Part shown: piece after piece, positions 10,412 through 64,000 of the stretch
How the letters are laid out: every line of letters starts with the position of its first letter
Position numbering within the stretch: position 1 is the first letter of the stretch
DNA from: Obrimoposthia wandeli
Lineage: Eukaryota
Direction of reading: 5' to 3'
DNA length: 64,000 nucleotides
Assembly (NCBI GenBank): GCA_977020255.1
Contig: CDROCS010002100.1
Span: 434,001-498,000 of the forward strand
Translations under genes and position numbers: made by a program
Notes under the pieces: model-generated
What the model was told of the DNA's origin: nothing
Databases searched by the model: none
Seen by the model: only the letters and a program-made list of their open reading frames with translations

Positions 10412-10442
10412 CTTTGTCCTGAAAGACACACATCCCCCTACT
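10412..10442 (-). mobile_element. Orphan 31-bp copy of the Maverick terminus
   Basis: CTTTGTCCTGAAAGACACACATCCCCCTACT is the exact reverse complement of 54671-54701. Confidence 0.85.
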
Positions 10443-10677
10443 ACAATCATATTGCAACTTTTTGCAAGTTATGTGTAATACATATCTTTATTCTAAGATT
10501 TTAATAAACAATTTCTATTAACAAATTCAAGTTCTTGGAAAAATTTATAAACATGAAATAGTTTTTGATGATGAAAAATAGCTCAATAGTACAGATTTCA
10601 AAATGAGACTATGACAAGTAAATCTAAAAAGTATCCATTACCGAAATTTAAACCCTCAAACACTGTTACTCAACGTA

Positions 10678-10956
10678 CAGTCAGACCTCTACATAACGAA
10701 CACTCTACATAATGAACACTTTTTTTTAACGAACGGTAAACCAAAAAAAAAAAAAAACCAAAAAAAAAAGAAAAACATTTTAGCTTCTAAAAAACCAAAA
10801 GACATTACTGACTATTTGGTTAGGAAAAAATAAATACATGTCTTATTGTAGTTTATTTTGTTTTATAAATAAAAGTTTATTAAATTGTTCGTTCCTTTTT
10901 TTAACGAACATGGAATTTTTTGAAAAGTTGGTGTTCGTTATGTAGAGGTCTGACTG
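10678..10956. mobile_element. pogo/Tigger-like MITE (279 bp)
   Basis: Perfect 26-bp TIRs CAGTCAGACCTCTACATAACGAACAC (10678-10703 and 10931-10956), flanked by TA on both sides. Confidence 0.92.
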
Positions 10957-11779
10957 TACTTGGAATATTTATACTTTTACAAACGATTTTATATTCCCCA
11001 CATTTCAGAACTATATTACTTGATTTATTTGAAATCTTCAAATTTTAAAATAAATTGATTAAATTTAAATTTAAATGAAATATTGTTAAAATTATAATGG
11101 ATAAGTCATTGGCGACAATTATTGAATATGAAGAAAATATATTTGTAAATAAGAATACATTTTTTAAACCCAGTTAGAACCGAATCTAACTAAAGCTTAT
11201 AATCAAATTTATATATACTAGTATATCAGAACCAATACTAGTAGGAGGTACTCGTGTACCTCTAATTAAAGCCATTTGGGTTCAACAAGAAAAAATAAAT
11301 ATGGAGATATTATCAATGTTCCTATCGAATATCCAATGTGTCTCCCAGTGAGTTCTGTCATTAACAATTTCTCAATTTCTCAACAATTTCTTCAATCATT
11401 TCATTATCTTCCACAGCATCTTCAATTACTTCGTCATCTTAGTCGACTGCCACAGTATATTTATTGTCCTAAGATTGTTACAAAAACCTCCTTAAACATA
11501 TTTTCTTTTTTAAAATATTTGAAACTTTTATGCTAGTTTCTAAATAAATATATTATAAAAATAAATGTTAGATTTACAGTAATATCTCATCCGCCATATT
11601 CGCCGGATGTATCCACTAGAGTAATACCCTTTCTCACCACTCTAAACACAGTCACTAGAGAATATGTATGAAAATTTCCCTTTTTATCATCCCTTGGTTT
11701 GACAATAAACCTGACATAACTGTGAATAATGTAAATGATTATTTAAATAAATAATTTCACTGATATTCAAATTCTGCAG

Positions 11780-12056
11780 GGAAAAGGTCAAATGCAGACG
11801 TACTTCATTGACTCGCGGAAGGAAGACGATGCCTATTTGCAGTTTAAGGAACTTCTGGAAGATGATCGTATGATCGAGGAATCGAGTCCCGATGATTCGT
11901 TGTCGATCGGGTCAAGGATCAGCTCTGCATTTCTACCTGCCCTGGATATGTACTCGGGCCTGGAGGAGCGCTTGCCACCTAATACGGCAATGAATGGTGT
12001 TGTAGATTCTTCTCAGTGGATATGTTCTCCTACGGGAACTCCAACAGACAACGGAG
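11780..12056 (+). CDS. Class III nucleotidyl cyclase exon (end of catalytic domain plus tail)
   Basis: Acceptor TTCTGCAG ends at 11779. The exon begins GKGQMQTYFID, the 'GKG.M.TY(W/F)L' cyclase motif. Likely donor GTAGGC at 12057 (phase 1). GC-rich compared with its flanks. Confidence 0.85.
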
Positions 12057-12218
12057 GTAGGCTGTAGACACAATGTTCTCACAACTACACTTTTGTTATT
12101 GACAGACAACTCAGAACGGTACCTGTGCCATATAGAATCTTTGGGACCTCTCTGATTTCTTGTATTTCAGACCTTCGACATATATGATTTCTACTCACCA
12201 TAACAATCTGTCTACCAG

Positions 12219-12622
12219 CAGAAGGTGACGAGGAGATGAAGGATGTCATGTCGCAGCGCAGCAAAGAGCTGTTGTTTGAGGAGACAATGAAGCTGCTGGA
12301 AGAACAGGAGAATCTTTGCCGCAAAGACGGGGAGCTGCTGCAGAATGGGTTCAGTGAGGTGATCGACGGTGGCGCCAGTGTCGTAGACACCGAGGAGGAG
12401 CCTGAGGTGGACACTGAGGAGGAAAGCAAGATCATACAGGAGCAGCAACAACTGCCCCATTCAATCATCCGGTCCAAGAACAGCAGGCGGAAGAAGGGCA
12501 TTGTCTTCTTCGACAACAACCAGCAGATCATATCGCCACATCGTAGTGATAGCAGCAGCCACGACAAAAGTGACGGCTCCAGGACACATTCTTCCAGTAG
12601 CAGCAGTGAGTCAGACTTCTAA
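12219..12622 (+). CDS. Probable C-terminal exon of the cyclase (acidic, Ser-rich tail)
   Basis: Acceptor ...CTACCAG at 12218 is phase-1 compatible with the 12057 donor and continues into ORF 12236-12622. An optional 43-nt intron at 12606-12648 would move the stop to 12692. Exact structure is uncertain. Confidence 0.6.
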
Positions 12623-15900: not shown

Positions 15901-16047
15901 ATAATTATGATGCTAAGAAAATTTAGTGGTGAAAATAGACAACTACTAAATTAATTTGTCTATTTTGTGATTAAGAACTTTTTCTCAAATATTTACTCTA
16001 TAAACAAATTTTAGGTCATCTTATTTTCACTCTTCACTTCATTGTAG

Positions 16048-16166
16048 ATCGATATTTGACAAAGGGTTTGGCTGTGATCGCGAACAACCGACCTAGTGAT
16101 CCCATCAAGGCTCTTGCTGATTGGCTGAGATCTTCTGCGGAGGCTGGATCAATGGACACTTTCTGA
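16048..16166 (+). CDS. Terminal exon encoding a Dpy-30/RIIa dimerisation-docking motif
   Basis: After the ATTGTAG acceptor: DRYLTKGLAVIANNRPSDPIKALADWLRSSAEAGSMDTF*, matching 'L..GL..la..rP.DPi..LA.wL'. Confidence 0.8.
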
Positions 16167-17760: not shown

Positions 17761-18845
17761 CATTTGCACATTAATTTAATTATAAAAAAATAACGTAATT
17801 TAAAGTAACTTCAAAGTTTTGCAACAAAGCGTATACTTTTCTTGTCCTTACAGATATCTATCCAAAATGATAAATCCACGAATTCTGCTTGAATGAAATC
17901 TAATCCGTAAATGTCCATTGTATTTACAAAATAATGATATTCATTTGATCCAGGCTAACCATTGTTTGGAAAAGGGTATTTTTAAAAATCTCGGTTACCT
18001 CATACTGGGCACGGGACTGATATAATACTTTCTTCTTTCTGTTTTTTTATATTTGTGCTATAAACTGCTTTAGAATTGATAAAAAAAAACGATGTGAAAT
18101 TTGGACTTTTTGTGAAAACAACATTAACACTGAACATTACCCTGAGTCGACTCTAGCGCTGTGGCTAATAATTTTGGCACTTCTAAAGTCATTCTTGGTT
18201 GAACACTGTTACCCAACTGTGAACCCGACTGCAAGTTGGAGAACGAGGTGCTCTCTTCTACTACTGACTGATATTCGTTCAAATATTTTGAATTTGATTG
18301 CTAATCATTGCTAACTTCGTAAAACACATTGGGCATATTGACAATTGATATACTACTTAAATTGCCAAGAATGCATTGAGCTAAATAAGTTTTGGAGTAA
18401 AAAATTCTCGTAATACACTTCTAAGTAAATTGAAATCACTACATTACAAAATTGAAAATGTCTTGCAAAATAAGATGAAAAGTACAGGAAAATATTCGAA
18501 AAATATACAGAGATTTTTTCTGTATTAATTATATTTTAAAATCTTATCAATAAAATAAAACAAATATATTTATTTTATGGTAATTTTAATATCAATACAA
18601 CATTTATCACAATTTTACTTGTTATAAAACAATAATAATCTAATGAATCATGTAATATTAAGATAAATAATAAGCATGTTGCTATAAATAGTTAATATAT
18701 AAAGTATCTTTTGTGTAATATATAAAAATTAATTTATATATTAATGTTCTATTTTATGATATAATTATTAAAAGATCTTCAAAATAAATCCCGTTTAAAT
18801 GACTAAGCTAGAAATAGCCATATTTTCAATACGGTTATATTTTTT

Positions 18846-19270
18846 GGGGCATTTAAAAAACTACTTTTGGCATTTAAATTACCACTTTGGGCATTTAATA
18901 AACGGCATTTAATTTACTAGTTTTTGGCATTTAAATTGGTATCTTTTGGCATTTAAATTACTACTATTTGGCATTTAATTTGCTACTTTGGGCATTAAAA
19001 TTACTAATTTAACTAAATAGTAATTTAAATGCCAAGAAGTAGTAATTTAAATACCCAAAGTAGTCATTTAAATGCCAAAAAGTAGTAATTTAAAAGCCAA
19101 TTTAGCAAATTAAATGCCTATTTAGTAATTTAAATGACCAGAATAGTCATTTAAATGCCAAAAGTAGTAATTTAAATGCCAAAAGTAGTAATTTAAATGC
19201 CAAAAGTAGTAATTTAAATGCCCAAAGTAGAAATTTAATTGCCAAAAAGTAGTAAATTAAGTGCCCCGTT
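18846..19270. repeat. Foldback element: inverted arrays of a ~21-bp unit
   Basis: About 8 copies of GGCATTTAAATTACTACTTTT followed directly by about 12 copies of its reverse complement AAAAGTAGTAATTTAAATGCC. Confidence 0.9.
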
Positions 19271-19909
19271 AATTACATGCCTTTTCAATATGCAATCTTT
19301 TATTAAATATACGGTCAAACAGTTTATTTGAATAGTGCATCTGGGTATTATCGCACAAATTTCGAATTACTACCGTTTAATCCTGTACATACGCTATATG
19401 AAGTTCTATTAAGCAGTTTTTTTTCAACATGAGATCTTCTGACTGTGATTTGCAGACAGTTCGGTCAAAAATATCAGATCATATATTCATGTATATTGTA
19501 TTGAAAATACAACAAAACAAGTACAGAGATCTGAAACAACCTCGAGCAAAAATCAAAAGTTTATTTGATTAGAAAAATTCCTCAGCTCCTCAAATTAGAA
19601 GAGTCTGATTAAGGTAGGTATTTTTCCTTTCAATTCACTTTCGAATCTCACAAAACACAACTACCTACAAATCACACAAACATCAAAATCAGGCAACCGT
19701 TTCTGTGTGTATGGATGTGTGTGTGTGTGTACAAATTAAGCTCCTACGACTTGAGTTATGGTGTAATCGTGTCTGTGTATGTGTGTAGTTGATCGAGCAT
19801 CATTTTAAAACTTCAATCGAAATTGGAGGCAGTTTCTTTTCATTATGTGAAGCGGTTTCTGGAAGACGGCTATTTTTGTGTATCGAGTATAAATGATGAT
19901 AATAATTCG

Positions 19910-22300: not shown

Positions 22301-25299
22301 GTAAACATGAAAATTCTTTTTAAAACTTGAATATGTGGTCATCAAATGTTCCTGGAATTTGAAACATGTGTGTATAATTATTTTACTTGGTAAATGACAT
22401 TTTCATGAAATTCATTGTTAGTTTTATTTTAGTTTTGTGACACTTTTATGACATAATTTTAATTTATTTGTATCATTTATTGAATAACTTTTAGATTGAA
22501 AACATGTTGCTCATTATATTTGATTTTACCTTTTACATGTCATTTATGAAATATATTAAAAAAAAACTTTAAATTGTAAAAATATGTCAAATGATGTGGG
22601 AAAATTTTGAACGTTCCCCAAATAAGGGAGGAAAGCCAACCTATATGTTTAAAATTAACTTGTATATAGTTTAATTGACATAATAATATTTGATTTCATT
22701 GTATAATGACTATTCATTTTAATTTAAAACCGAGACTGGAAAACGTAGCATTAGAAATGGTTCTGTCTTCTGATTCATAAATTTCTTCTGGAAACTTAAA
22801 TTTTGAATGGGATTTGTATTTTCGATGTTTTAATTTACCTTTGCCATTTGTTGGAATTCATTTAGTTTGTACCTTTGTAAATGTATATTTTGTTCTGAAA
22901 ATAATCTCCTTAATTCAGCTTACTATGTCGTTTCCTTTTTAGATATTTATATGTTAATCTCCCTCCAAAAGTTTGCAAATGTAAGTCATTTTTCATGTAA
23001 AATTTAACAAGAATAATTATGTTTTGATTTCCATTTTGCATTTTAATTGCCTTTTCGTTTGAGAAAATTTAAAACATTTTCTTTCTTTATATCTGAGTAC
23101 AAATAAAATTTGAGTGCAAATGAAAATTAGTTGAAAATTATTGGAAAAAAATGACAATTTGCTTCTTCATTTTCAAGAAAACAATAATAGAAATTAAATT
23201 AGAGCGTAATTCGCGGAGTTATTCACACGCAAAGAGAAAATTTATATTTATAGTAACACAAGTGTGTGAAAAAATTATTTGGTGGGGGAATATTTTCGAG
23301 GCCTCTCAATCATGATGAATGGCGGGAGGAATTTTTTCCCATAATTTCCGATCATACCGAAAACAGGGGAAATGTGTTTTTTCGGAAATCCGAAAATCGC
23401 CGCAGCAAAACTCGAATATGTGTGTGAATATTTATTATTTTCGAATAAACTCTTCACCTACTTGTAGCCAATAGACTGAGCTACCCTTTTCATATTCCTT
23501 GTTGTTTTATAAATTATTGTGACATTCTAATTAAATATGACAATGATACCTAAACTCTACAGTAGTTTTTACCTTGTTCAACGGCCTTCGCTGCAAATTA
23601 AGGGAAATCACATTTGAACGAATTATTTATCAGATTTGGAAATAAAAGTACAGTCTGAAACAAAGTTCCATTGACTATTGATAATAAAGTTTATTACCAA
23701 ATATAAAAACAATCAAAACTCGTCGTATATTAATTATTTGAAAAATCTTCACAAAAATGGTTCTTCATCGGAGTCAACAATGAACCTCATGTTTCATAAG
23801 AATTATTGCAACGTAAGATTGGTTATGTTTGGAATCAGCTTGCATGCAGTCAAGATTTTAATTTCTTTCTTAATTGCTTATTTAATTTCTTAATATATAA
23901 GCGCAGTCACAGAAATTTCAATAGTTATCATGACTTAAAGACTTCCTTGATAACACTTGTAAGGCAATTGAATGGGAGCAATTTTTGAGATTAATTGAAC
24001 AATTATTTTATGATTTAAACTTTTAAAAAAATGTATATTTAAACAATTTTTTAAAATTTAGTTAAACGTTCTGCAAAACTAAACTAATAATTAACTTAAC
24101 GATGGATATTACTCATTTTATTTAACATTACTGCTATATGTATCTAATGGCAAGGTTAAATGTATTACATGAACTATGTATTATGTCAAAATGTAAAAAT
24201 TCAAATTTTTATTCAAACTCATTTCTTCACCCCCTAAAATACTGAAATTTCCCCAGGGTGAATTCCCCACAGTTTTGGGAGCACTGATTTAAAGAAATGA
24301 TAGAAGGAACTGATAATTATTTGTATTTGCTGGAAGTCTTATTATATTCAAATAAATATACGTTGTTTGTGATATTTTGTAAAATGTAAAAAATGTAAAT
24401 CATTAATTACTCTGATTATATTGAATAACTACAAAAGTCTGATAATTTCTAAAAATAAAAAACATGCAGAAGCAATTTATATATTAATTATTATTTTCTA
24501 AGAAATAAAACGTCAATTTGCTTTCATTGTGCTTATTTCATGTTTCCATTACACACTAGTTCCAATTTCATTATACATTTTTAGAATATTTTTACAGTCA
24601 ATTTTAGAATTTGCGATTGATTTTAAAACACAATTTATTTTGTACAGTAAATACACATTCAATTTCTGTTGTTGTTATAATATTTTTGAATCCTGTTATT
24701 AGATTATAAGGCACAAATAAAAGTAAATTTTATAGGTTAATTATCAAGGTTATTTGAGATTTTTTAGTGAATTTTTGCTAACTACCCCAATTTGACTTTA
24801 ATGGCTTTTTACGACCAGATTCCTTTTCTACTGTTATCTTCAAAATATTATTCAAAATTCAATGGTGACAGCTTCAAAAGTATCTTTTAGTTTTAGCATT
24901 TTTAGATAGTTTACCATTTATATTTCTATATAAATAATTAATGTCAACATTAAATAAAATGTACAAGAAAAGTGCAAAGGACTCCCTGATTTCGAAGCCT
25001 TATCAATATTTATATTGGTTATTTAGTTAAAAAAAACTAAAAATGGTTCTTCATTATTAAATTTTTATCAGTTATATTATTAAATAAAATAATAAAAAAT
25101 TAATTTAGCGTATTACTGTGATTATCTACTGGTTTTGAGTAAAAGCTGAGAACGGTAGCGCAGAGGTTCGTTTTTATATATTAAAGTGGGTCATTAAAAT
25201 AACCGTTTTCTATTTAAAATTACCAGCATCACTATCAATGATTTGTTTCTATCTTTTTATAGATTCTTTGAATTTAGATTCAAAATTTTTGAATCTCCA

Positions 25300-26030
25300 T
25301 ATCGAAATTCTATTAGAACCAGATCTGATTGAGTGCACATATTTCTTGGGTTCTTTTCAAGGTATATGAAAACAGCATTATCATGTTGAAGTTTAACTCG
25401 CTTTCTAATCATTGAAGCAGGTTAATCTTTAGCTTAAACTTCATAGACCTTCCGGTTGTCTACAGTAATAGTCTGAGCTTACCATTTGACATTTATCTAA
25501 CAAACTATAATGAATGTATAGCAAAAAGCACCTCTTCGAGTTAGCAAATCTTATTTGATCCATGCCAAGCTTTAAGTAGCACACCAAGGGCGACGTCCAT
25601 TTTCAGGCTCAGCACAGATCATCGCCGACTCCAGTCCCCACATTGACTGTCAACCTGCACCCAGCTCACTTGCACCAACTTCAACCAGCTTCATTGAAAT
25701 TGAACACACTGTTTGGGCTTCGTCAGTCCCAAAACAAGGTCAGTGCTGACCTAAAATAACAACGTATATGGTTCAAATCTTGTAGCTTAAAAATGCACTT
25801 TTCTGTATAAGGTTTATTAACAATATTAATAACTTAAAAGCGCTTCTAATAAATTTTGAAAATTACGTTCTTCAACAGCTTCTTGAATTCTTCAACATTC
25901 TTACAGTTTCTTATATTCATCAGTAAATTGTTGTAAATATTTAAATCATAAAATACAATATTCCATAACTTTATTTGAGAAATTCTTAGCCAATCTGGCG
26001 TCAACATCGTACATAAGAGTACCTGCAACG
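25300..26030 (-). pseudogene. LINE (L2/CR1-like) 3' remnant
   Basis: ORF 25846-26028 ends ...YNNLLMNIRNCKNVEEFKKLLK, resembling the 'WN.LP..IR....FK..LK' C-terminus. It is interrupted by an LTR-like island near 25600-25750. Confidence 0.45.
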
Positions 26031-27266: not shown

Positions 27267-27608
27267 GTCTACATAATCGAACACGTGAATGAATTTTTAT
27301 GTGATTTATTAACAAAACATCTGAAATAACTTTAATCTGATAGGAAAATTGGTGGAATTGTTTGGAAAGGAACAGCGAGGAGAGAGAGAAAGTATTGTTT
27401 TACACATATATAATCAACACGTTTGTTTATTCTAGATTTCATGAGTTTGATCGTAGATATGCTTGTGTAATAAGCTTAGATGGAATATTAAGAAGTTGAT
27501 ATGTCTTTAAGAGTATTAGGATAAAAGAATTAAAATTTTAGGGGATGAATAATTTTAAAAATTACATATTTACATTATTTATCAATCTCCGCCGGCCAAA
27601 AACATTTC

Positions 27609-27953
27609 TGTAATTATAGATGGAGAGTTGTTTGCAGTTATGTTGACGTTTTTAAACCACTAAAATATTCGCTTACGAAACATATTGAATCAATGGGCAC
27701 TGATACATCACCAGTCACACTCATGCGTTTCCCTGACTCCGAATATCTCGTGTGGAGTCGGTAATTAGTGTTTCTGGGTCGATGGTGCACGGATAGCAGT
27801 TGGGATCAACTGATCCCCTACTAGGACAGTTCGCTATCTGTCTCCAATGATCGTCGTTGGTCGGTTTCCTGTACGCCTTCTTCCTCCATCAGCAGCAGTA
27901 GAAAACAACAAGAGAGGCAGCAGTGAGATCCAGATTCCAGGCCGCTGCTTTTT
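27609..27953 (+). mobile_element. Solo LTR-like repeat, copy 1 (3' truncated)
   Basis: Starts TGTAATTATAG; highly similar by eye to the reverse complement of 34856-35207. Confidence 0.7.
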
Positions 27954-34839: not shown

Positions 34840-35207
34840 GGTAATAATTGAGGCCAAAGAAGCAGCGGTCTGGAATCTGGATCTCACCGCTGCTTCTTCT
34901 TGTTCTTTTTCTGCGGCTGATGGAGGAAGAAGGCGTACAGGAAACCGACCAACGACGATCATTGGAGACAGATAGTGAACTGTCCTTGTACAATGTAGGG
35001 GATCAGTTGATCCCAACTGCTATCCGTGCACCATCGACCCAGAAACACTAATTACCGACTCCACACGAGATATTCGGAGTCAGGGAAATGCATGAGTGTG
35101 ACTGGTGATGTATCAGTGCCCATTGATTCAATATGCTATGTCAGCGAATATTTTAGTGATTTAAAAACGTCAACATAACTGCAAACAACTCTCCATCTAT
35201 AATTACG
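34840..35207 (-). mobile_element. Solo LTR-like repeat, copy 2
   Basis: Reverse-complement match to 27609-27953; ends resemble a degenerate TGTAAT...ATTACA. Confidence 0.7.
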
Positions 35208-35539
35208 GAATCGTATGTTGGGATCTGAAGATGAACTTATTCCTTCGTAAACATAATGTAGTCTAAAGAATTTCTGATTTGTATCTCTCCAATCGTAATT
35301 CTGTATTTCCCTTTTAAATTTATATTCAATTATGTAAATGTTACAACAAATAAATTAATTAGCATGTAAATATCGTACCTAAATTTTAAAAATGTAATGA
35401 AAAAGGTAATATGTATAACCAAACATGCTACAAATTCAAGAAATACTACATTTTTTATATTTATTTTAATTAACATTTTATAACAATCGTAAGATTTAGT
35501 TATTGTCATTCTTCTAGTCATGTTGTTGTGGGTTTGAAT

Positions 35540-45470: not shown

Positions 45471-48400
45471 TACATCAAAATTTACATTGTTTCATATTTC
45501 AGATCATACATTAAATCGTTTACAATTTTTTTAACAAAGCAGTACAATTAGTTTCAAATGCATGAAAAGTGCTAGTACAAGTGAACATCAATTACGTATA
45601 CCACTTCAGTTTCAGTTTTTCAGTCCCTGGCTTAACATAGAAAATAAATGTAAACAAGTATATTTTTATTTAACGTCAACATGTATCTATATACTGTTTA
45701 TTTTTCTACATATGACCGTTTTTCTTCTGCGAATAATAATCTCCTGGAAAGCCTGTTCAAAGAAATCAGGCTCGCTTTTATTTAAAAAACGCGAAAACTA
45801 TCAATAAATTCATCTCTGGTGTTGAACCTTAATACAAAATGAAGAAATGAATAACACTTCTGTATTCAACTTGATTTATCATTAATTAGCAGAAATTTGA
45901 AAATGTATAAATAACAAAGAAAACCAAAGAGAGTAATTACAAAAAAAATCTATATATAGTGATGAAGTTATATAGAAAATTACAGTTTCTATTTGTTTTA
46001 TTTATATGTGAGGTTAGGTACTTTTTGAACGTATCACTTATATCAGGAATATGTACAAAATGAATAAGAACATTGTAGTAGCCTCTTTTGTTCTTGTCGA
46101 ATATCGGGAATTAAAAAAGAATCTACCTTTTTTAGAAATCTCAACTGAATGTCTTGGATGATTTTTGATTAAGTCAAATTTACAGTTTCTATGTATTATT
46201 TCTTTTCATTTAGTCTGTTTAGCTGCATAGTTATCAAGCGCTGACTTTTAACTAAATACTGAATAATTAAAACTATAAATCACGAATATTTGAGATCTTT
46301 TAACTATTCTCAAATATATATCTACTGACCCTGATATTTGAATCGGTCTGAGTTTGAGGATTCAAGATGATTTTCTCACAGCATTGCCTTTGTCAACTTT
46401 TGGATTTCTTCTTATAATAAATTACTGTTGAAAATTCTAAAATAACTTTTTTGGATTTGAATTTCGAAATTTTCAGATCTATCACTTTCATTCTGCTACA
46501 TTTTTCCAGCTCCCTCTGAAATGGACATAATTTTTTTTCTGTCACAAATTTAGATTGAAACCATCTTTTTAAGAATAACCATAAATCTTTTTCGTCCTTA
46601 TCTAAGAGAAAGTTAAGCAAAGCCGTATAATTCTTAGCCAAATATTTGCATCTTCGTCGAATCAGCGTGGAATTACCGAATTCTCGCCTCAAAACTTTTT
46701 TTAGATTCCTTTGGTGAAGCCTGAAATAATTTCTTCTGAGCTTTCGATTGGGATTTCTTTCCAACATTACTGTAGTAACCAGTACCAATCGAAAATTGTG
46801 GAGTATCATATTTATATATTCAGTAACTACTCTTCATGTTTTTATTTTAAAGCATCACAACTTACTGACAAAGAAGTTTAACACCCTTCCGTTTTGAATA
46901 ATTGTGTCGTGAAAATATTTTGCTCAGTTTTCAGACAACTTCAACAATAAATTGAGAAAGAATGATAACGAGGATTGTCCAGTTTGTTTTCTCAATTTGA
47001 TTACTTGCGTTTTATTAGTATACCTTTAGTATTTTTCCTTAGCACAAGGAACTTGTATAAACTCAAGATATTTTATAACGAAAGAATGATTTGCGAATAT
47101 TTCTTAAAATAACCATTTACATCAATGTTTACTAAATATTTTATTCTTCTGACATTTTCTTTAATTTTTAAATGCATATTTTATATTCGTTTTTTAAATA
47201 TTTTAAACTCTTTGGAATTTATTTTAAAACGTCAATACAGTCTGTAACATCATATTTTGATCAGTATTAAAAATAAGTTTTACACAATTACTATGTACTC
47301 GAACTGACAAGAATATAGTCTCATACAAACACAATCATTTACAAATATCCACTTATACGATATTCTTTTTTGAATTTCTCAATAGATTTCCTAATTGCGC
47401 TTCTTTTCTTCTTGAACACAGGAACTTTTTGAAACCGAGTAACTTTGATTTTTCTTTAAACATCTAGTATTTATTTTCTTTAAAATCATTATTTAATGCG
47501 CCAAATAACCTTTTCCTTCTTTTGAGAAAGTTTTTCACTTTTTTAAATGGTTAAATAATTATGTTAAATAATATATAAATTTCTGTGTGATATTAGCAAA
47601 ATTAAGCAAAAGCAGATGATTGAAAATGTAAAGATGGAAATTTATTGGAAAAGAATAGAAGTGGTCAAATAATTATGTTACAGACTGTAAATTCAATATT
47701 CTGGTAAGTTCGTAACTTATTTACTTCTAATAAAAGCTCATTTAAATTTTAAAAATCCTATTATTTCTTATTAGTCAAATTGAGTTTAAAACTTTCTTTA
47801 TCTGACTACCCGAGGCGGCTTTCATATGAAACATCTTGTATATGTGACTCTCAGCTTTGCAAACCAATATATGACATGTTATGTGGGATTTTTCTCCAGG
47901 ATGATTGTAGCCTCTGGGGGAAATCGCCCTTAATTTGGAGACCGCTGATATGAATCACAGATTGAAAGAGATACAAATCCAACTTCAGTTATGCGGGATG
48001 CGGGATCATTGTGTTTCACCTACCTATTTGCATAAATGCTTGGTCGAAATTTCTGTAATTCAAATGTAATTGAGATTTTTCAGCTGATTTCCCACAACAT
48101 CAGACTTGCTTCGAGAAACAGCTGTAATTGAATTCTAGACCACCCACAGCGGGGGAACTCAATTTACATCCAAGCCATCATATGTAAGGAGGCAAATAAT
48201 GCTATAGATGTATACATATCTCTGATTGCCAACAGAAGACTGTCTAGGCATTCAATTCAATCAAAATATCATAAATTGCTCCAATTACGAAATCTAGGAC
48301 AAATGGGAACAGGGAACAACTTTCAAAGTTATTTGGCAAAAATAATATTAATTCATAAAAGTCTATATTGGGATACTTTGAACAATGAGACCTTCTAAGT

Positions 48401-54433: not shown

Positions 54434-54669
54434 AGTAAGTGTGTCAGGAGGTAGATGTGGCACTTCTGGAACAAAACCCCCCCCCTAAGGACAAAATTTT
54501 TTAAGGTCAAGTTGAGGACAAAAAATCTAGGTCAAGTTAAGGTCACGGTGAGGTCAAGATGTAGGTCATGACCTCATGAGGTCATGGGAAAAATCTAGGT
54601 CATGACCTCATGAGGTCATGACCCCCACTATGCTCAGGAAAAAATTCTTTGTCCTGAAAGACACACATC
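54434..54669. mobile_element. Mini-Maverick-like terminal derivative (~240 bp)
   Basis: The left end is a diverged direct copy of the terminus (AGTA..GTGTGTC..AGGA..GAACA..polyC) and contains an AGGTCA array. The right end is an inverted copy of the terminus. Confidence 0.55.
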
Positions 54670-54670
54670 A

Positions 54671-54910
54671 AGTAGGGGGATGTGTGTCTTTCAGGACAAA
54701 GACATTTTGAACATACCCCCCCCCCCTTGAGCACAGTTTAAGGTCACGATGAGGACATGACCTCATGAGGTCAACTTAAGGTCACGGTGAGGACAAGGTG
54801 TAGGTCATGACCTCATGAGGTCAAGTTAAGGTCAAGTTAAGGTCAATGTACTTTATGGTCAACATAAGGTCATGACGTCATGAGGACAACTTAAGGTCAC
54901 AGTGAGGTCA
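54671..54910 (+). repeat. Maverick terminal repeat region with AGGTCA array and palindromes
   Basis: More than 10 AGG(T/A)CA hexamers, mostly at 11-bp spacing, and recurrent TGACCTCATGAGGTCA palindromes. TIR status is inferred because the other end is not visible. Confidence 0.75.
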
Positions 54911-56725
54911 AAAAGATTATATTTTTAGTAACATACTTTAAATCTATATATCTTTTTATCTAAAGACTGTATTAACACCAATTCACCAAAATACATCTCG
55001 TGTGTGTGTTTTATAATTTAAATTAAATTATCTACTTATAAAATAAAGTATTATATAATTTGATAAATTTATTTAAACTAAATTAAATTAAACTATCTAG
55101 TTATAAAATAAAGTATTATATAATTTGATAATCATGTTTAAACGTTCCTATATCTATCTAACAAAGACAGTCACGTACTGCATCTATATTGCAAAAACCT
55201 GCAAATTTATGTAAATAATTTTAAAATAAAGACAAGTATTTCAAACACATATATTCCTTAAAATCACAAAGGAGAATAAAAATATGTACAACACATATAA
55301 AAAGTTTATACAACCTCGTCTGGGTATAAAAAGTGACCATAGGCGACTGAACGGTTTTTCTCCACCCACTTGCTCTTATCATCACTACTACTTAAGACAA
55401 TTTTACTTAACCTTACAGTAAAAAGTTGATGATTTAGCGAGCGTGTTGTTGTACACGCTCGCTAACGCCACTCTCATATACGGCTAAGTAATTAGAGTGC
55501 CTAATACTCGTCTGTCGGAGACTAATACCTTTCGCTCTCATCTGAGATTCACCTTCTGTAGTCTCTAGGCTATATGATTTTGGTCGTAGAAAAATCCCTT
55601 GGCTATAACTAAATAATCCCTTACTCTCATCTTTAAATTTTCCTATCGCTGTATTAAGCGTCGTATAAAGCGGATGGGTTTTTGGAAATTTCGAGGTATC
55701 CAACAGTCCATCAGCAATCATAGCAGGTAACAGTGATTCTTGAACATTGACATTATTACACTTCAAGAAAAAGCTATCAGTGTCACCCGCTATAATTCTA
55801 ATGTCGCAGTTAAATTGAACTCGATATTTCTCCAACTGCTCATATTGTAGCTCATACATACGAAGTTTGCTTAAATCTAATACTGCCTGACCCATGTAAC
55901 TAGGACGATCCAAAACAATATTTTCCTTATCCAGTAAAACTGCAATAAGGTCCGTATCGATTTCGATTGTCCTACGAAAGTGGGCTTTACTGCAATAGAT
56001 AACCAGCTTCTGTGGAGTATTACAAATCCGGAGGTTAATTCTTTTCATCAGATTCTCAATGAGTTTTCCAAATAAAGAATTCACCTTCAGTTTATAATAA
56101 TCCCGCTCGAAATCTGTTGTAGCCGCAGCTCTTTTGAGAGAATTATCCTCAATATATTTTGAAAAAACATTAGTTTGTTCAAACTGTATTGCTCTGTATA
56201 CAAAATCTACCTTAGCACCAAGTCTAACGTACATTTGTAGCAATCTAGAATGCACAACATAATGTTTCTTAGGGTAATGCGTTAATAACAATTTTTCAGT
56301 CTTACACGCTGTTGGACGCTGTTTAATGGGAGCAAGGGGAAGATCGTCGAATTTATTATGAAGCTCGTTGGGAATGGATAAATCTATTTCCAATAAATGA
56401 GCGAAGCGACTACAGGATAAATCTGCTGATTTTAAGCTGGAGATAATATTCCCCAACTCTAACCTATCAGTCACCCAGGAAAAGTTACCACAAGGTAAAA
56501 ACTGGGACATAGCCCACCCGTACAAATTGTTTACATCAATGTACAAAAGTTCTGTACCATTGATGGCGTCCACGCGGTGTTCATTAACAAATGTCATACC
56601 CCCGCGAATCCCAGACCGGAAGAGTCGGTACATTTCTGGATCCTGTATTAGCTCGACTCGCACAACGGGAGCAGAAGAAGAAGCCGGACGAAGCAGGGAT
56701 TTGAAAGCACTCGCGAAAGTCAGTC

Positions 56726-56858
56726 CTGGAAATAAAAACATTTATTAAAATCATTGTGAAAATCATTACTTTGAAAATCATCTATCTAACAAAGACGGTC
56801 ACGCATCTATATTGCAAATACTTGCATCTTTATGTAATCAATAGTAACATTTATTCTT

Positions 56859-56899
<41 letters not shown>

Positions 56900-57041
56900 A
56901 GTATCTAACAAAGACAGTCACGTACTGCATCTATATTGCAAATACTTGCATCTTTATGTAATCAATAGTAACATTTATTTTTATACATGTATATATATAT
57001 GTGTTAGTGTCTAAAATTAGAAAAATTAGAAAAATACAAAA
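56726..57041 (-). other. pPolB intron 2 (316 nt, phase 1; donor reads TT instead of GT)
   Basis: Removal restores FFSIP-G-LTFASAF. Polypyrimidine acceptor TTTTTATTTCCAG. AT-rich, with an internal ~120-bp tandem duplication and a (TA)n tract. Confidence 0.75.
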
Positions 57042-59516
57042 CAGGGATGGAGAAGAAATTGAGTGGCTCCAATCCATCGTCAGCAATGGCCTTGGTCCGG
57101 AATGCTGTAAACACGTCTGCTAGAAGGTAGACGTCCATCTTCATATAGACCAGCATATAGTCCCAGAGCGATGAGCAGCCGCTCTGAGTCCAGACCATCT
57201 TCGCCATTTCATATTGTGCTGGCTTGATCTTCTCATCCCACTTTGGCGGTAAGCTGGTGATTGCGCGAAGAGCAGTCTCTGATACTGCCATATCGTATGG
57301 GAAGATTCCCTTGGCGCTCACCAGATGTTGCGGGAAGACCGAATGTGTAAGAGGAGTCACACCCAGGTTTTCCACAAGTTTTTCTAAGCTGCTGTTCAAA
57401 AATTGAAGGGAATCGATGAAACGTATACAGACTCCTCCAATATACACCATCATAGCCTGGAATTTCTTTGTTGATTGAGGTATAACAGATACATTCAAGT
57501 CGGAAAACTTGCATAGTGCGTGCTTCAATATGTGGTGCATGTCATAACCCATAAGATTATAAAAAATGACTGGAAAAGATCGATTAATTCTCCTTGATAA
57601 GTTGCATTTTGCATGTGCAGCTCCCAGGTATTCGCCAGTCATGTGATTGTGATCTCGAACTTTGTTTGTGAGTTTCTTCTTACACAGGTAACAGATTCTT
57701 GCTGCATTGAAACTCGATACCTGTTCCTGTGTGAGTTGTCGCATCACCTCGATCGCAGGCTTCTTGTACCATGGGAGTACAACCTCTTTCGCCAAGTCCT
57801 CTAATTTCTGCAAAAAGGATACCACACAAGATTCTCCGGTAAAGACCGAGTAATCATGTGTGTACCCTCTCGTGGCTGCAACGGGAGACATGAGCATACC
57901 GGCCGAGATTGGAAGCTGAATCTGATGGTGGATCCCATGTGGCGGTAGCACAGCCTCAAAGTCCGCGTAAACAGCAAAAGGCGGAGAAATCGTTTTTGAA
58001 AAGACCTTAAACTCAATATGCTTCTCTGTAGGTATTGAATAAAGTGTTGTATGATCTAAATTCATCCTACAGAGCGGAACGTGTTTGGCGTAACTTATCG
58101 GACTACGGAATCCATGAAGACATTTATGGCACCAAGTACACCGAATGCAATTAGATACACCTTTGTTCCTATAATTAAGCAGCCTATTGAGTTTAGGAAT
58201 ACCGACATAATGAAAATTATCATTATTTTCTAAAAGGATAAGATTGATTGGCTTAGCGTCCTGTTAAACTGTAGGTTTGTGGTTCTGTAAATGACATCCA
58301 CATAGGGATTTTTGAAGATATCCCCATCTGTTTGTACATTAGAGAACCTATTGAATGTAAATACGTTGGTTGATAGAGATGGATTCTTTCTCTCAAATCG
58401 CGGTATATTACATAGACGCATCGGCATATCATTCTCATCAAAAACTAATTGACTCAAAAAGGCATCATATTGATTAACCCGATGAGGATTAGAGCGAAAT
58501 ATTTCGCGGAAAAGTACAGATAAGATACTGTAAAGGAAGCAAAACGCGTTAGAGTTCTGCACATTGATAACGCAATGTGAGAGTGCTAACTCAGATGGAG
58601 TAGGTATATAACTACTCCCCTGGAGATAGTTCATTGTTGTTGTTTTAGTCACAACAAACGAAATCTCCAGGAAGCTGTTCACTACCCAATTACTGCTACT
58701 TTGAGAATAATTCTCAATCTTCTTGTTGATCCCATCTACTCCCGCATCTATAAACCCCTCATCTATGGGGAGCCCTCTATTGGAAAAATTCCAAGCGCGT
58801 GTTTCTCCAATATTGGAAAATTCAACACGCACCCCGAATTGAACCTCGCAAGTCGCAAACTTGCTGACTGTGTCCCTTAAGCTAGTCAAACGTGATACAG
58901 GAACTTGTAAATCGATGAGATTGTCATTAGAAACATCTAATGACAATGTCTCAATCGTGCCCCGAAGACTAGTCTTACGCTTAACATCATCAACCCTGGA
59001 AAACTTCGCAACAGAGCTACCTGAAGTGGGCATAACACTTCTCTTGCGGGTAGATGCTGGTAACGGCGCGGGGATCATACCAACTGGAGGAGGCATAACT
59101 GGAACCATTGGTGCAGCAGATGATGGTGAAGCAACTGGGGCAGCAACTGGAACCATTGGTGCAGCAAATGATGGTGAAGCAACTGGACTAGTAACAGCAG
59201 CAGCAATTGGGGCAGATAGTGGAACAGCAGAAATTGGGGCAGCAATTGGCGAAGCAGCAACAACTGGACCAGCAACCCGAGAAATAGTAGCAGATCTATT
59301 CTGAAAGATGGCCTTCTTGCCACGTTGCTGGAAATGGCGAAGATGGACACGATGACGCGCCACAAACTCCAGCCAATCAATCTCCTCCGTAGAGAGACAT
59401 ACTGGACATACGTAGAATTGTTGTCCGTTGAACTTCTGTCCAAAGTAGCTCTTCATTTTTCCATCTCATTCCTTGTGACTCTCCTCGAAGCATAATTCTT
59501 TGTTCATATTGCAATT

Positions 59517-59558
59517 CTAGAAAGAAATAAATTAGCAGAAAAATAACAATAAACTTAC
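59517..59558 (-). other. pPolB intron 1 (42 nt) directly after the ATG
   Basis: ATG|GTAAGT...GCTAAT...TTTCTAG|. Splicing puts the ATG at 59561-59559 in frame with pPolB, apart from one TGA. TATA box (TATATAA) about 50 nt upstream. Confidence 0.7.
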
Positions 59559-59692
59559 CATTTTCAATTTCGTTTATAATAGGGGATTATTTGTTGATTG
59601 ATGCTTGCTTATATACTATTTTCGAGCTAGTATTAAGCCAATCAGATTCATTCATTATTTAAACCAACCAGATTAATTTAAAACAGAATAGT

Positions 59693-60202
59693 TTACTGAC
59701 AGATGTGAGTAGTTGAATTTTCATTAATATTTAAATAATCCAAACTAGCTGCAAAGCATTTCTTGTATGCACAATGCTCGCCATGTTTAATATATGGACA
59801 ATTGATATTTGATGGATTTAATTGTTTTAATGTTTTCGAGTAATTTATCACTCTAAATGCAGGAAAATATTTATTGATTGTCTTTATTTTAGCTCCATTA
59901 TTTTCATCCAAAACATAGAAAATTGATTTGGATACATCACAACAACGTTTTATTTCCTCAGTTATTTCTTGTATCTTGAAATTACTATTACCATCAACTA
60001 GTTTTAGTCGATGGTAATGCTTAATGAGATATCTATTTATTTTTCTTGATTTTCTATTCATCATGTCCCATATGGGTTGCATTTTAAAAACATAATGTTT
60101 AGGATAGAAGATTGCATCCACATCCATTATACATAGTTCTTTTATTACAAATTCAGTATTATTATCAATAAAAGCTTCAAAATCAATAAAATAAACAGAC
60201 AT
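59693..60202 (-). CDS. DEDD/DnaQ-fold nuclease-like protein with putative E-C-H-C zinc site
   Basis: Intact 169-aa ORF with N-terminal YFIDFEAF...IKEL and C-terminal CPYIKHGEHCAYKKC. Confidence 0.65.
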   Translation of the reverse strand: MSVYFIDFEAFIDNNTEFVIKELCIMDVDAIFYPKHYVFKMQPIWDMMNRKSRKINRYLIKHYHRLKLVDGNSNFKIQEITEEIKRCCDVSKSIFYVLDENNGAKIKTINKYFPAFRVINYSKTLKQLNPSNINCPYIKHGEHCAYKKCFAASLDYLNINENSTTHICQ

Positions 60203-60239
60203 TTTTTATAGCAATAATTTTATTTGATATTGTTTACAT

Positions 60240-60617
60240 CTATTGTTTATGCTTTAACCAAAGCAGACAGAGTTGTCCACATGACTGTGTTAAAACATTT
60301 TGATAATGTTTCTTACTAAAATGTACTTTCTTTCCAGAGTCAAGTACTGTAGATACTAATTTAGAAGGGTAATATATCCTAAAGGGGTCAAAAACAAAGA
60401 TTTCATTTTCATTAACATGTATTGCAATCCAATGTTCACCACGCAAATTACATGAATGTGTATTGATTACATATCCACCTAGTCGAGTCAAAGAGGGTAT
60501 GTGATCAAGACTGTAGACTCCATTGAAACGCGAACCGAGTAGTTTTCTTCCGCTTTTTGTTATCTCGTCCGAACTAGAATATATATTAATTAATAAATTC
60601 AAACTGACTTACTTCAT
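60240..60617 (-). CDS. Adenain-like cysteine protease, spliced
   Basis: GEHW, FDPF and QNVLTQSCGQLC catalytic motifs. Exon 1 ATGAA (60617-60613) plus exon 2 (60573-60240) gives MNSDEITKSGRK. Confidence 0.9.
60574..60612 (-). other. Protease intron (39 nt, phase 2)
   Basis: Canonical GTAAGT...TTCTAG; without it the ORF has no in-frame ATG. Confidence 0.8.
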
Positions 60618-60648: not shown

Positions 60649-61867
60649 TTATACTAGTACTGTTCCTCCTTTGGTAATTTGCATCTCAGAATCGAATACT
60701 CCATAGATTATAATATTAGTAGGATGTTCAAGTGCTTTTGAAAACTTGATTTATACTTTCAAATTTCCCTGTTTAGGGATTTGAGCTTGATTAATATCGA
60801 AATCAGGAGAGAGAACAAATGTGAACAGTGTATACTTGTCCTTGAAATCAGTCATTGAAATTCCAATATTAGCATCCTTATCCAAATGACCAAGATTTCT
60901 AATTAAAGATTGCACATAAGAAAACACATAATCATCGTTTTCAAAGTCATTCGTATAAGATTCTTGATAATCAATATTTCGTGCAAGTTTAATTGAACTC
61001 ACATTCATGTGTCCAAATTGAGAAACCTCATTTTTAGACTCACCTCCATAGGTAGAAGTGTTTTGGAAAGCAATTAAAACAAAGTTTGGAAGTTGCATAT
61101 CACCAAAAATCTGATCCTTGTAATAAGATAGTGCCCCAGTAGGGATAGCGTGAGAAACAAGATTAGTTTTTCTAATAGGATAACATGCATTTTGCTTCTC
61201 CAACCCTATTCGATGTGCAACGAGTACAGATGGTTCCACCTTTACTCGTCGAACCAGCAGTTTTGCTTCCGTAATCTCAATGCGGTTTTAATAGTATCGT
61301 CGCAAACAACACTAAAACCTACTGGATTTCTCTTCATTCGAGTATGTGCACTTACACCGGGTAAAAGATACTTTGGTTGCTTAAAGAAATCCAAATGGAG
61401 ACTCCCACAAAGTGACAATACTTTAGACTTTGCAATCGAGGCAATTCTTCTTTTTTCATCATTGTCAAACCCAATTGCATCAAGATTAATCAAATTCGTA
61501 TCATTACCGTAATTCAACAATGTTTCAATCATTGCTTTATGGGTGTAACTAGTATTATTTCCCTCAACTTGAGACTGAGAATCACATCCTTGAAAAGAGT
61601 ATGCAACATGTAATTAGCTGATTTGATATCCATACCATCATCCAAATCACCTCCACCTTCCTTTGTAACTTTCAATTTAACGAGAAATAAACTATCATTC
61701 AAATCAAGATATTGAGTATTGGATCCATTAATATTGAATTCTAAATCCGGAGAAGATGTCCCGTTAACCGTATTTGTAGGAAATATTTCTTCAAAACTAG
61801 CACTATCAACCACAACCTGAGATATAGGTTTATCGAATATACACAATTCAGTTTTAGCACAACTCAT
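60649..61867 (-). pseudogene. Double jelly-roll major capsid protein (Polinton PY), disrupted
   Basis: KTELCIFDKP, LEFNING..YLDLNDS, LHTLF, LHLDFFKQPKYLLPGV, YTLFTFVLSPD and IYGVFD motifs. Two -1 frameshifts (~61570, ~61275) and an in-frame TAA at 60751-60753. Confidence 0.9.
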
Positions 61868-62210
61868 TACTTAAAAATTGTTCCACCTAGTTTCAAACGT
61901 TTGTTTATACCCGATGCTTTAGATGTTTTCTTACGTTTATAACCACTTCCCTTTTGAGTTTTCCTTTTCGAAAATTCAGCTAGACTTGGTGAAATTTCAT
62001 TCACCTGATCCAAGGCAGAAATTTCCCATCACCAGACAAGTATTTTGATCCAACATTAGCAATAAATTTCCCGAGTCGCTTGAGTAGTGGGAAAGCAAAG
62101 CGACCAAAAACCTTCATCCATCCTGATCCATACTGTTTTCCGGCAAAATAAGGCAAATCACCTCCTTGCATCGGTTTACTATACGCCTCGATTATACTTG
62201 AATCAATCAT
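61867..62210 (-). CDS. Small Polinton virion protein with adenain-type sites and basic tail, one frameshift
   Basis: MQGG|D and QYGSG|W sites, amphipathic WMKVFGRFAFPLLKRLGKF. After a frameshift at ~62025 it continues ...QKGSGYKRKK...LGGTIFK*. Confidence 0.7.
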
Positions 62211-63228
62211 AATTTACGAAAATGAACCGTTAAACTTGTTTTAGCTCCGTAAGCAAATGTAATTAATCTTCCAGAATCATTACGTATATTAACTTCAATA
62301 TTGTTTATAGAAGAAGAACTCACGGGAATATACATTGGATTTTCAATTGGAATATGTATAACATCACCATACTTGTGCTTTTTCTGTTGAACCCAAATTG
62401 CTTTAATTAAGGGAAGTTTCCTTCCTCCTACGAATATTGGTTCGGTAATACTCGTGTAGATATAAATCTGATTATATGCATTAGTCATTTTAGGAATAAT
62501 CTTTGCTTTGAAAACCTCATTTTTATTTTCAAATTCATTTTCATCAAAACCGATAATTGAGGCTAATGATTTATCCATGATGATTTTATCAATATTGGAT
62601 TTCAATTTGAAATGAATAAATTTATTAACTAGTTTAAAGTTTTCAAATACATTTGGTAACACTGTTTTAAAATGTTTACACATACTTTTGCTATCGGCAA
62701 AAAGAAAATCATTGGGAACTGAATATATTTTTCTCTCGCGTTTAACGAATCTGTTTTTTATCTTGAATGTAATTATCGGATATTTGACATGATTATCCAT
62801 AATTTGTGAAACTGCATGCTTACCTTTTTCAACGTTAGGCGGAAATCCATATTGTTCTGCAACAATTTCATCATTAAAAACTATTTCAAAATTATCCCCT
62901 TTTCCCATAATTTGAATTCGATTCTCTTTATTTAAATAGACTGTGAAATCATCACCTGACTTAATACGAGCCAAATCCATTTGACCCTTATCAAATAGTA
63001 AAGTCACATCAGTTACTTTATCAGCTTCACGTTGGGTAATATATTCAATCTCAGTTTCACTTTGAATAGATAGAAGAGAGTATTGAAAGAAAATTCCATA
63101 AGAGCAGCTTCCCAACAACCTGGTAAATTGATTGAGCTTTGATAATCAATACTAAAACTATTAGCAGTATTATTCGGCTGTGTTAATTGGGAACCATTAC
63201 TTGGTAATACAACATACATTGAGTTCAT
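62207..63228 (-). pseudogene. Minor capsid (penton-like, Polinton PX) protein, one frameshift
   Basis: N-terminal MYVVLPSNGS...NNTANSF...WEAALMEFS; C-terminal IYIYTSI..VGG..NPMYIPV..IEVNIRNDSG..HFRK. Frameshift at ~63090. Confidence 0.88.
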
Positions 63229-64000
63229 TCTATTTGAGAAGCTAATATCCAACTAGGTTCAGTATATCCATGCCACTTAACTTGATATTGTTTATGCTTT
63301 CCTCTACCTTTTGTCTCTAAAATTTCTTGGATTCTATATACATTTGATTTCTCAGGCAAGACTTGTAATTCCTCATGATAAAATTTACCCGTGATTACAT
63401 TATTGGTTTCATCCTCAATGAAATACATTACCGGCCCACGTTTATTATCAATTTTAGTTATACGAAATACTTCATCGCTCCAATTCTCTTTGAAATTCTT
63501 TATAAAAGGAGTAGTACTAATTTGAGAAATACGTACATAATCACCAACTTTATACTTGGGTTTCCGAGCAAATTGACTTTGGTTACGGCGTTGCCAAATT
63601 TCCATAGCATTCTCATCTGTAACATCAACGGGTCTCTTCCAGTCTAATGATGAGTGTTCACTATGATTGTATGCATGTATTATTTGAGGTAAAACAGTAA
63701 CCCAGGACTTATTTCCCTGCTTTGTGAAATACTTTTTTAAACGATCTCTCAATGTTCGATTAAAACGTTCAACTAAAGCGGCTTTATATTGGGAAAATAC
63801 TGAGTAATGATTAATATTATGTTTTTCAATGGTGTTTCAACATGTTTATTATAAAATTCCTTTCCACTATCGGTTTGGAAATTTCTTGGTTTTATTTCTT
63901 TAATCAAAAGCTTCATTGCGGCTAAAACATCGGTACCAGACTTAGACTTTAATGGAATAGCTCGCGCGAATCTGCTAATGACATCAACACAAGTTAAAAT
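63225..64000 (-). pseudogene. Retroviral-like integrase with C-terminal chromodomain-like region, 5' partial, one frameshift
   Basis: ILTCVDVISRF, QTDSGKEF, VERFNRTL and VKWHGY..SWI motifs. Frameshift at ~63822. Confidence 0.93.

Follow-up and report, generated by a model that had tools for sequence, protein, structure and literature searches.

Introduction

The core genes of Maverick/Polinton elements (a set described in PMC5718144 and PMC8097293, as far as the available parts of both go) have been characterized as intronless, and screens for intact elements rely on counts of open reading frames (ORFs). In particular, intact vertebrate Mavericks are reported to be intronless (PMC8097293, available parts), nematode Mavericks are described as having intronless core genes and introns in cargo genes only (10.1101/2022.07.12.499685, available parts), and viral genes are assumed to be intron-free in the accessible text of PMC9356565. 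The present work deals with a Maverick/Polinton copy in a stretch of 64,000 nucleotides (nt) from Obrimoposthia wandeli (contig CDROCS010002100.1, positions 434,001 to 498,000; the whole stretch is called here the window, and positions are counted from its first letter). This copy shares with the animal Maverick/Polintons (adintovirus, Polintoviricetes) pPolB, an rve integrase, an adenain-type protease, probable major and minor capsid genes and terminal repeats. In contrast to the intronless core of the described Mavericks, its lineage appears to carry a position-conserved intron in a core virion gene, the protease.

Spliceosomal introns within Maverick-like elements have been described in dinoflagellates, whose Maverick-Polinton-like proviruses contain introners (host intron-generating transposons) that mostly inserted after integration (PMC11957031, available parts). 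The introns proposed here are likewise spliceosomal but, unlike introners, they would be 35-47 nt long, divergent in their interior and fixed in position across a clade, and no second copy of the 39-nt or of the 42-nt stretch discussed below exists within the window. Introns are also present in protist Polinton-like viruses (PLVs), in the form of self-splicing group I introns of 309-376 bp in a small accessory gene (PMC12220804, in the part available), which, in contrast to those proposed here, need no host spliceosome. Tiny spliced start exons are known from Mastadenovirus E2B, where pol and pTP both receive the same 9-bp coding leader by splicing, a leader that has been lost in some lineages (PMC5744146, available parts). 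An earlier note on this DNA, made from the letters alone, had drawn this parallel, which stands insofar as the initiator ATG of a protein-primed polymerase would in both cases come from a tiny spliced exon. Unlike the shared adenovirus leader, the window has separate, local exons of 3 nt and 5 nt and introns of 39-42 nt (one of them on the protease), making the parallel an analogy only, and the likeness is assumed to be convergence.

The clade described here appears to have kept an intron at the start codon of its protease gene, with a probable second one in pPolB and a false third one in the window copy. The explanation that we favor, and consider likely, is a Maverick lineage with a coding micro-exon and a short U2-type start intron in the protease gene and probably also in pPolB, a further 316-nt stretch in pPolB being no intron. 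The uninterrupted core ORF, which is a descriptive property of Mavericks rather than a strict one, is not found in the protease. In the full-text literature, within the parts available, no earlier account of a Maverick core gene with a spliceosomal intron conserved in position was found (supplement maps, e.g. of PMC8502044, or Repbase might show spliced starts); in particular, the accessible text of 10.1101/2023.08.22.554363, PMC8502044, 10.64898/2026.07.28.741278, 10.1101/2024.03.25.586562, PMC8363768, PMC3370646 and PMC11296320 holds nothing on such introns.

The start of the protease gene

The protease (adenain/Peptidase_C5-like) would be encoded on the minus strand by a 5-nt coding exon 1 (60613-60617), consisting of the ATG and two further bases and ending in a phase-2 junction, and by an exon 2 (60240-60573) which is open and contains the His, Asp and Gln-x-Cys motifs. 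Between the two lies a candidate U2-type intron of 39 nt (60574-60612), which runs from GTAAGT to TTCTAG and, when left unspliced, gives an in-frame stop at codon 3. Both this exon and this intron had been predicted in the earlier note, and the predicted coordinates are exact. The unspliced ATG yields a 2-residue peptide only, and none of the 122 codons of the unspliced protease ORF is a Met; given this combination of a stop at codon 3 and a Met-less remaining ORF, the protease start, as read from the DNA, needs splicing, and so does its translation. Splicing sets the Met 17-21 residues ahead of a G-V-F/Y motif, which matches the distant homologues.

The splice signals of this stretch and of the 42-nt stretch at the start of pPolB (see below) are much alike: both begin with GTAAGT, end with TTCTAG, are 79-82% AT and have branch-like YTRAY motifs 16-20 nt from their 3' end. 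Both are also a multiple of three nucleotides long, yet each contains an in-frame stop when unspliced. For the 39-nt stretch, all the marks of a U2 intron are present, namely donor, branch motif, YAG acceptor, homologous N-terminus and conserved position (the conservation being deduced from proteins). On the minus strand of the element, two of the three GTAAGT hexamers lie 0-2 nt after an ATG and have an acceptor 30-70 nt further on; in 1000 dinucleotide shuffles the mean number of such sites was 0.069, and two sites were reached in 2 shuffles, for a pattern that was chosen post hoc.

Homologues of the protease numbered 1338 at E<=0.001; a single-sequence search gave 1 homologue among 4 candidates. 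A PDB sequence search gave a single spurious match (E 1.5). For the comparison of N-termini, 258 homologues were pooled and ranked by their score to the window protein, and the classes of leader were counted in the best 60. Where codon 1 is followed by a phase-2 intron, a prokaryote-style ORF caller will either start at an internal Met or read through the 3' end of the intron and, in the latter case, a YAG|Y acceptor must yield an NNY codon followed by Ser. Among the best 60 of the 258 homologues there were 20 intact starts, 13 truncated proteins, 26 proteins without Met at codon 1 and 1 unclassified; 39 of these 60 closest homologues are, in other words, truncated or devoid of an initial Met, which bears out the earlier claim that ORF-based annotation misses the true N-termini. 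Ser occupies codon 2 in 25 of the 26 proteins without Met, against 1 of the 20 intact starts (Fisher 9e-11) and against 9 of 30 distant proteins without Met (2e-7). Ahead of this Ser stands, in every case, I, F, N, S, L, C, Y or V, all compatible with NNY, and never M, W, K, E or Q, and the F/L/I/Y content of the leaders is 72% in the close set versus 22% in the distant one. Additionally, all nine leaders of at least 13 residues contain a donor tripeptide corresponding to ATG-RA|GT in any of the three frames (five show [Y/H/N]-E-V, three W-S-[K/N] and one M-K-Y-V; relatives P0122, P0275, P0305, P0280, P0127, P0272, P0292, P0287 and P0303), the background of the two commoner patterns being 0.25% per 8-residue stretch. 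The implied introns are 35-47 nt long, with interiors that are unrelated among relatives and lengths that vary freely. Their deduced lengths are 37 nt in P0122, 40 nt in P0275 and P0287, 41 nt in P0305, 38 nt in P0280 and P0292, 47 nt in P0127, 35 nt in P0272 and 42 nt in P0303.

A protease tree was calculated with the leaders excluded, from the best 110 of the 258 homologues after removal of 6 that have no anchor motif (105 rows, 106 columns). All 26 trace-bearing rows (25 relatives and the window) fall in one 50-row clade with support of 99/93, which also holds 14 of the 16 truncated rows, and the trace is present in none of the 55 rows outside the clade. Following the suggestion of the earlier note that related Mavericks be compared, we find at the protein level that relatives of about 40-59% identity share the position and the phase of the protease intron, and that a clear read-through trace in pPolB is seen only in relative P0036.

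Several points weigh against a clade-wide intron. The introns of the relatives are deduced from ORF-called proteins, the donor patterns were formulated only after the leaders had been inspected, the leader is no longer than 4 residues in 7 of the 25 proteins with Ser and may there be a genuine start, and the tree has 106 columns only, with an unsettled bootstrap. Moreover, an intact start is seen in 10 of the 50 rows of the clade, the top match P0276 among them; these are a 4-member subclade (P0128, P0294, P0297 and P0298, 100/98) and six others, to which P0277 and P0124 also belong, and they may reflect intron loss or spliced transcripts. A scan of genome contigs for the relatives' DNA led from 74 pattern matches to 1 locus, L001, which does not reach the junctions, and tblastn against a phage collection gave no match. 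With these points weighed, we hold with high confidence that the protease intron is real and clade-wide.

L001 itself (positions 90-1132) is a Maverick-type pPolB fragment (39% identity, middle of the gene only), lying on a 1286-nt contig of a bacterial metagenome-assembled genome, and is probably eukaryotic or viral contamination of that genome.

A real intron of this kind could have been gained a single time and have persisted without any benefit, as a frozen accident, since precise loss is rare in an element that replicates as DNA and intact splice sites are required for the protease to be made. This possibility shares its anatomy with the explanation favored here, from which it differs solely in the question of benefit, and it is a fair rival, one that we regard as conceivable though rather unlikely. 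The intact starts in the 4-member subclade and in the six other clade members suggest that the intron is perhaps dispensable, and the absence of the trace from all 55 rows outside the clade also counts in its favor. Against it, two genes of one element have an intron no more than 5 nt from the ATG, which suggests that the position matters.

The start of pPolB

The pPolB gene would start, on the minus strand, with a coding exon 1 formed by the ATG only (59559-59561), which sets the Met 2 residues ahead of the first Cys, followed by a putative U2-type, phase-0 intron of 42 nt (59517-59558), whose TAG acceptor reads as a stop in the frame that follows it; here too, the coordinates predicted in the earlier note prove exact. 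The N-terminal and exonuclease part (57042-59516; PF03175, E 3.8e-9) comprises a Cys/His motif from 59513, a CxxC..H..H unit and an Ala/Pro-rich linker, and the polymerase domain follows at 55306-56725 (PF03175, E 9e-16), with a frameshift near 55445. When unspliced, the ATG runs into a stop inside the intron after 9 codons. The codons just past the acceptor are in the same frame as the main N-terminal ORF and open the Cys/His motif, and the alignment of relative P0009 (E 0.009 against the window) starts at the Cys at 59513. In P0006, P0009, P0011 and P0024, a Met is followed by 2-3 residues and then by Cys, 35-39 residues ahead of the CxxC unit, as would be the case in the spliced window gene. 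Since the first conserved Cys lies upstream of the earliest unspliced ATG (59507) and the acceptor is an in-frame TAG, this Cys would be included by splicing only, and the full-length N-terminus of pPolB probably depends on splicing. Of the marks of a U2 intron, the consensus donor, the branch motif, the YAG acceptor and the homologous N-terminus are present.

The protein search gave 1704 pPolB homologues and admitted only proteins of at least 735 residues, which biases it towards uninterrupted genes. A clear read-through trace is found in 1 of 120 relatives, P0036, in which M-V-S, an F/L/I/Y-rich run and a Gln fit the read-through of a 45-nt phase-0 intron; for an intron that ends in TAG, no such trace is expected in ORF-called proteins. 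In the pPolB tree (63 of the 120 relatives), the window belongs to a 26-row clade, and several observations weigh against the start intron. P0036 is outside this clade, within which no read-through trace is seen; the profile of the relatives' N-termini aligns from 59492 only, short of the first Cys; and the in-frame ATGs at 59507 and 59456 could yield a shorter enzyme. Within the same clade, P0002, P0003, P0008, P0018 and P0022 start at a Met matching 59456, and P0006, P0009, P0011 and P0024 have the long start in unspliced, contiguous form. Together with the decay of the copy, these starts are what speaks for the 42-nt stretch being no intron; the gene would then begin with one of the unspliced ATGs, at 59507 or 59456, or have lost its original start to decay. 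We find this doubtful: a perfect donor comes directly after the ATG, and the branch motif, the tract of pyrimidines and the acceptor TAG lead exactly up to the conserved Cys motif, whereas a start at 59507 or 59456 would cut this motif, and internal-Met starts are also expected of ORF callers that face a TAG-ended intron. On balance, we take the pPolB start intron as probably real.

Other features of the pPolB N-terminus can be mentioned. Six relatives (P0005, P0010, P0015, P0051, P0062 and P0073) have ORF-called leaders that are rich in F/L/I/Y and end in V-D, V-E or S. These could be traces of other start-proximal introns in different phases, and the V-D/V-E leaders (P0005, P0010, P0015, P0051 and P0062) could represent phase-1 acceptors. 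The linker of the window gene (59059-59270, minus strand), which joins the N-terminal Cys/His unit to the conserved core, is Ala/Pro/Val-rich and made of 48-nt and 27-nt tandem repeats; the equivalent linkers of the relatives are of low complexity and unrelated. P0003, P0029, P0031, P0039 and P0053 have two tandem copies of the N-terminal CxxC..H..H unit, and in some of them a Cys/His motif stands ahead of these. The N-terminal Cys/His region in the window has no Pfam label.

The 316-nt stretch in pPolB

The two parts of pPolB are separated by an AT-rich insertion of 316 nt (56726-57041, minus strand), which the earlier note had taken for an intron splitting the conserved I-P-G motif. The split of I-P-G stands, while the GT-AG intron does not, since the stretch begins with TT. 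The adjacent GT, at 57042, does not share the frame of the acceptor and runs straight into a stop; no pair of GT-AG ends keeps the frame, and the stretch, as it stands, allows no in-frame splicing. Its contents are two units of about 124 nt, a (TA)n run and three AATAAA, and its 73-nt core is 88% like the 3' non-coding flank of pPolB at 55155-55227 (minus strand; E 6e-21, with none of 2000 shuffles reaching the score). Beyond the core, the likeness of the ends of the stretch to this flank is not significant (635 and 529 of 2000 shuffles). Among the 53 closest relatives, pPolB stays in frame across the site in 52 (41 by the I-P-G pattern and 11 more by eye), and the 53rd, P0050, loses the frame at the site in what reads as a plain frameshift.

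A genuine third intron, with a junction register damaged after the death of the copy or by assembly error, is improbable. The stretch is 77% AT, has a T-rich tract and a CAG end, and its GT is one base off the in-frame position, in a copy with many other small indels; the size limit in the search for relatives also favors uninterrupted genes. The apparent CAG acceptor may, however, be merely the Pro-Gly codons, and the three AATAAA, the tandem duplication, the piece of 3' flank and the continuity of the relatives all speak against an intron. We consider it quite probable that the 316-nt stretch is not a functional intron; most likely, it is a later disabling insertion, an ectopic copy of subterminal Maverick DNA.

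The element and its surroundings

The element lies on the minus strand, from about 54,450 to past the end of the window, and comprises an integrase, a probable penton, a probable major capsid gene, the protease, an ORF of no assigned function, pPolB and one terminal-repeat region. The pPolB, integrase and protease families agree with the Maverick identity given in the earlier note. The copy at hand is a dead, decayed genomic copy: pPolB contains a stop (59468-59466) and is frameshifted near 58260 and again near 55445, and two frameshifts and one stop interrupt the capsid gene. With these stops and frameshifts, the window copy is unable to make full proteins itself. The assignment of pPolB rests on PF03175 in the two segments of the broken gene. 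The retroviral-like integrase (63225-64000, minus strand) is frameshifted and runs off the window end, and this partial gene matches rve_3 with an E of 7.6e-4, under the curated cut-off. The protease matches PF00770 (E 0.0034, also under the curated cut-off), which many of its close homologues carry, and its His, Asp and Gln-x-Cys columns are conserved.

The remaining genes of the element are all on the minus strand. The capsid ORFs have no Pfam or PHROG match, and their labels lean partly on what we take to be the Maverick gene order. The probable double jelly-roll (DJR) major capsid (60650-61867), whose end lies about 30 nt ahead of the protease ATG, has an ESM Atlas lead of 0.96 to clusters within which 12-15% carry DJR-like or nucleocytoplasmic large DNA virus capsid families. 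The probable minor capsid (62207-63227), with a frameshift near its start, has an ESM Atlas lead of 0.98 to unnamed Preplasmiviricota clusters, and presumably represents the penton judging by synteny and motifs; both are leads only (recognition <2300). Between these two genes, a short ORF with G-G motifs (62020-62209) is presumably like the precursors of Maverick core or membrane-lytic proteins. A conserved-looking ORF between the protease and pPolB (59693-60202) has an unspliced ATG, no Pfam match and a weak PHROG match (E 0.033). An FtsK-type packaging ATPase is not among the window ORFs, the element continuing past base 64000.

Only one end of the element is inside the window (54469-54911). 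This terminal repeat region has AGGTCATGACC-type repeats and, at 54671, an AGTAG-type end, a motif that we take to be Polinton-like, facing a second partial inverted terminus. Where the two termini meet there is a 69-nt fold-back (54641-54708, 84%), which may mark two elements joined end to end or be a by-product of replication. A second, related Maverick relic is present at 10412-11380 (plus strand), which matches the terminal repeat at 54671-54701 over 31 nt without a difference and includes a decayed piece, penton-like and 73% identical to 62315-62675; it is interrupted at 10667-10967 by a small element with 37-nt inverted ends and, retaining only terminal and penton-like pieces, has no bearing on the introns.

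The window has a GC content of about 28%. The earlier note had likened the short introns to host introns of 40-50 nt predicted elsewhere in the window, a comparison that finds no backing: no multi-exon host gene bearing such introns emerged from Pfam scans of 147 of the 190 GC-selected ORFs of at least 45 residues (323 exist), of 148 of the 645 ORFs of 28-44 residues and of 6 more ORFs outside the element. These scans gave only Dpy-30, ATG8 and DDE_3, plus two weak stray matches. The three are isolated fragments, of Dpy-30 at 15975-16163 (plus strand, E 4e-9), of an ATG8-like protein at 25260-25421 (minus strand, E 0.0095) and of a DDE_3 transposase at 4442-4864 (plus strand, E 0.0013). A GC-richer coding stretch at 11780-12622 (plus strand) has a possible intron of about 160 nt (12057-12218), no Pfam match and no upstream exons that could be found; going by a motif, we take it to resemble the last exons of a nucleotide cyclase. 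A basic ORF of 146 codons at 46393-46833 (minus strand) has no Pfam or PHROG match. Finally, long inverted repeats at 27606-27953 and 34857-35210 (216 nt, 97%, about 7 kb apart) are probably the ends of a DNA transposon, and 18843-19285 holds an inverted array of repeats of about 21-22 nt that is satellite-like or like a miniature inverted-repeat transposable element.

Discussion

The mechanism that we propose is based on the gene anatomy described above. The protease intron would have been gained once, in the ancestor of the clade, and retained through long-term selection on protease expression; active elements would be transcribed in the nucleus by the host RNA polymerase II, and both short introns would be removed by the major (U2) spliceosome. 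The dependence on host splicing that the earlier note had proposed for these enzymes has clade-wide, protein-level evidence in the case of the protease and is probable for the full-length N-terminus of pPolB, and it finds no support for the third intron. Because the signals are of consensus strength and the intron interiors unconstrained, we judge constitutive splicing, perhaps enhancing or licensing expression, to be more likely than a regulated switch. Such a license could act through RNA processing, through export and possibly through escape from a silencing of intronless RNA.

A broader reading, in which an entire, unannotated Maverick clade makes both its protease and its polymerase through micro-exons at the start codon, with host splicing serving as a control point, convergently with adenovirus E2B, seems improbable to us; possible variants of it are a germline- or stage-specific control and a license against the silencing of intronless RNA.

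A regulated switch, of which the tissue- or stage-specific one suggested in the earlier note is a form, would have the start introns spliced only in certain tissues, stages or late in infection, gating the protease and the polymerase in the way that IVS3 of the P element gates its transposase. An on/off gate is conceivable, since unspliced RNA yields peptides of 2 and 9 residues only, and the affected genes are those of the replication and maturation enzymes, the capsid, penton and 59693-60202 ORFs having plain ATGs. However, the donors are perfect GTAAGT, the length and interior of the introns are variable and no conserved regulatory element was seen in them, and we consider a regulated switch distinctly unlikely. 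Least credible is chance splice-like sequence in an AT-rich pseudogene whose protease ATG was lost by mutation, which the low GC content, the 24 short GT-AG-like stretches in the window (mostly tied to no exon) and the near-cognate codons at 60584-60602 might favor, but which leaves unexplained the shared junction residue, the leader composition and the donor tripeptides in 25 relatives of one clade.

If splicing is part of the expression of these elements, ORF-based catalogues would start the protease gene at the wrong place. The use of ORF-called protein leaders as intron traces may be applied again to other viral genes. For the biology of the family, a lineage-wide intron in a core virion gene would imply that transcription of these elements takes place in the nucleus and that the host spliceosome processes their RNA, and its retention would point to long selection on protease expression, favoring the formation of real virions. 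Maverick particles had not yet been observed as of PMC8097293 (in the part available), and spliced junction reads could provide a cheap marker of where and when Mavericks are active. Should host splicing prove to be a control point, the removal of these 35-47-nt introns would show directly at what time and in which place Mavericks pass into a virion-producing phase.

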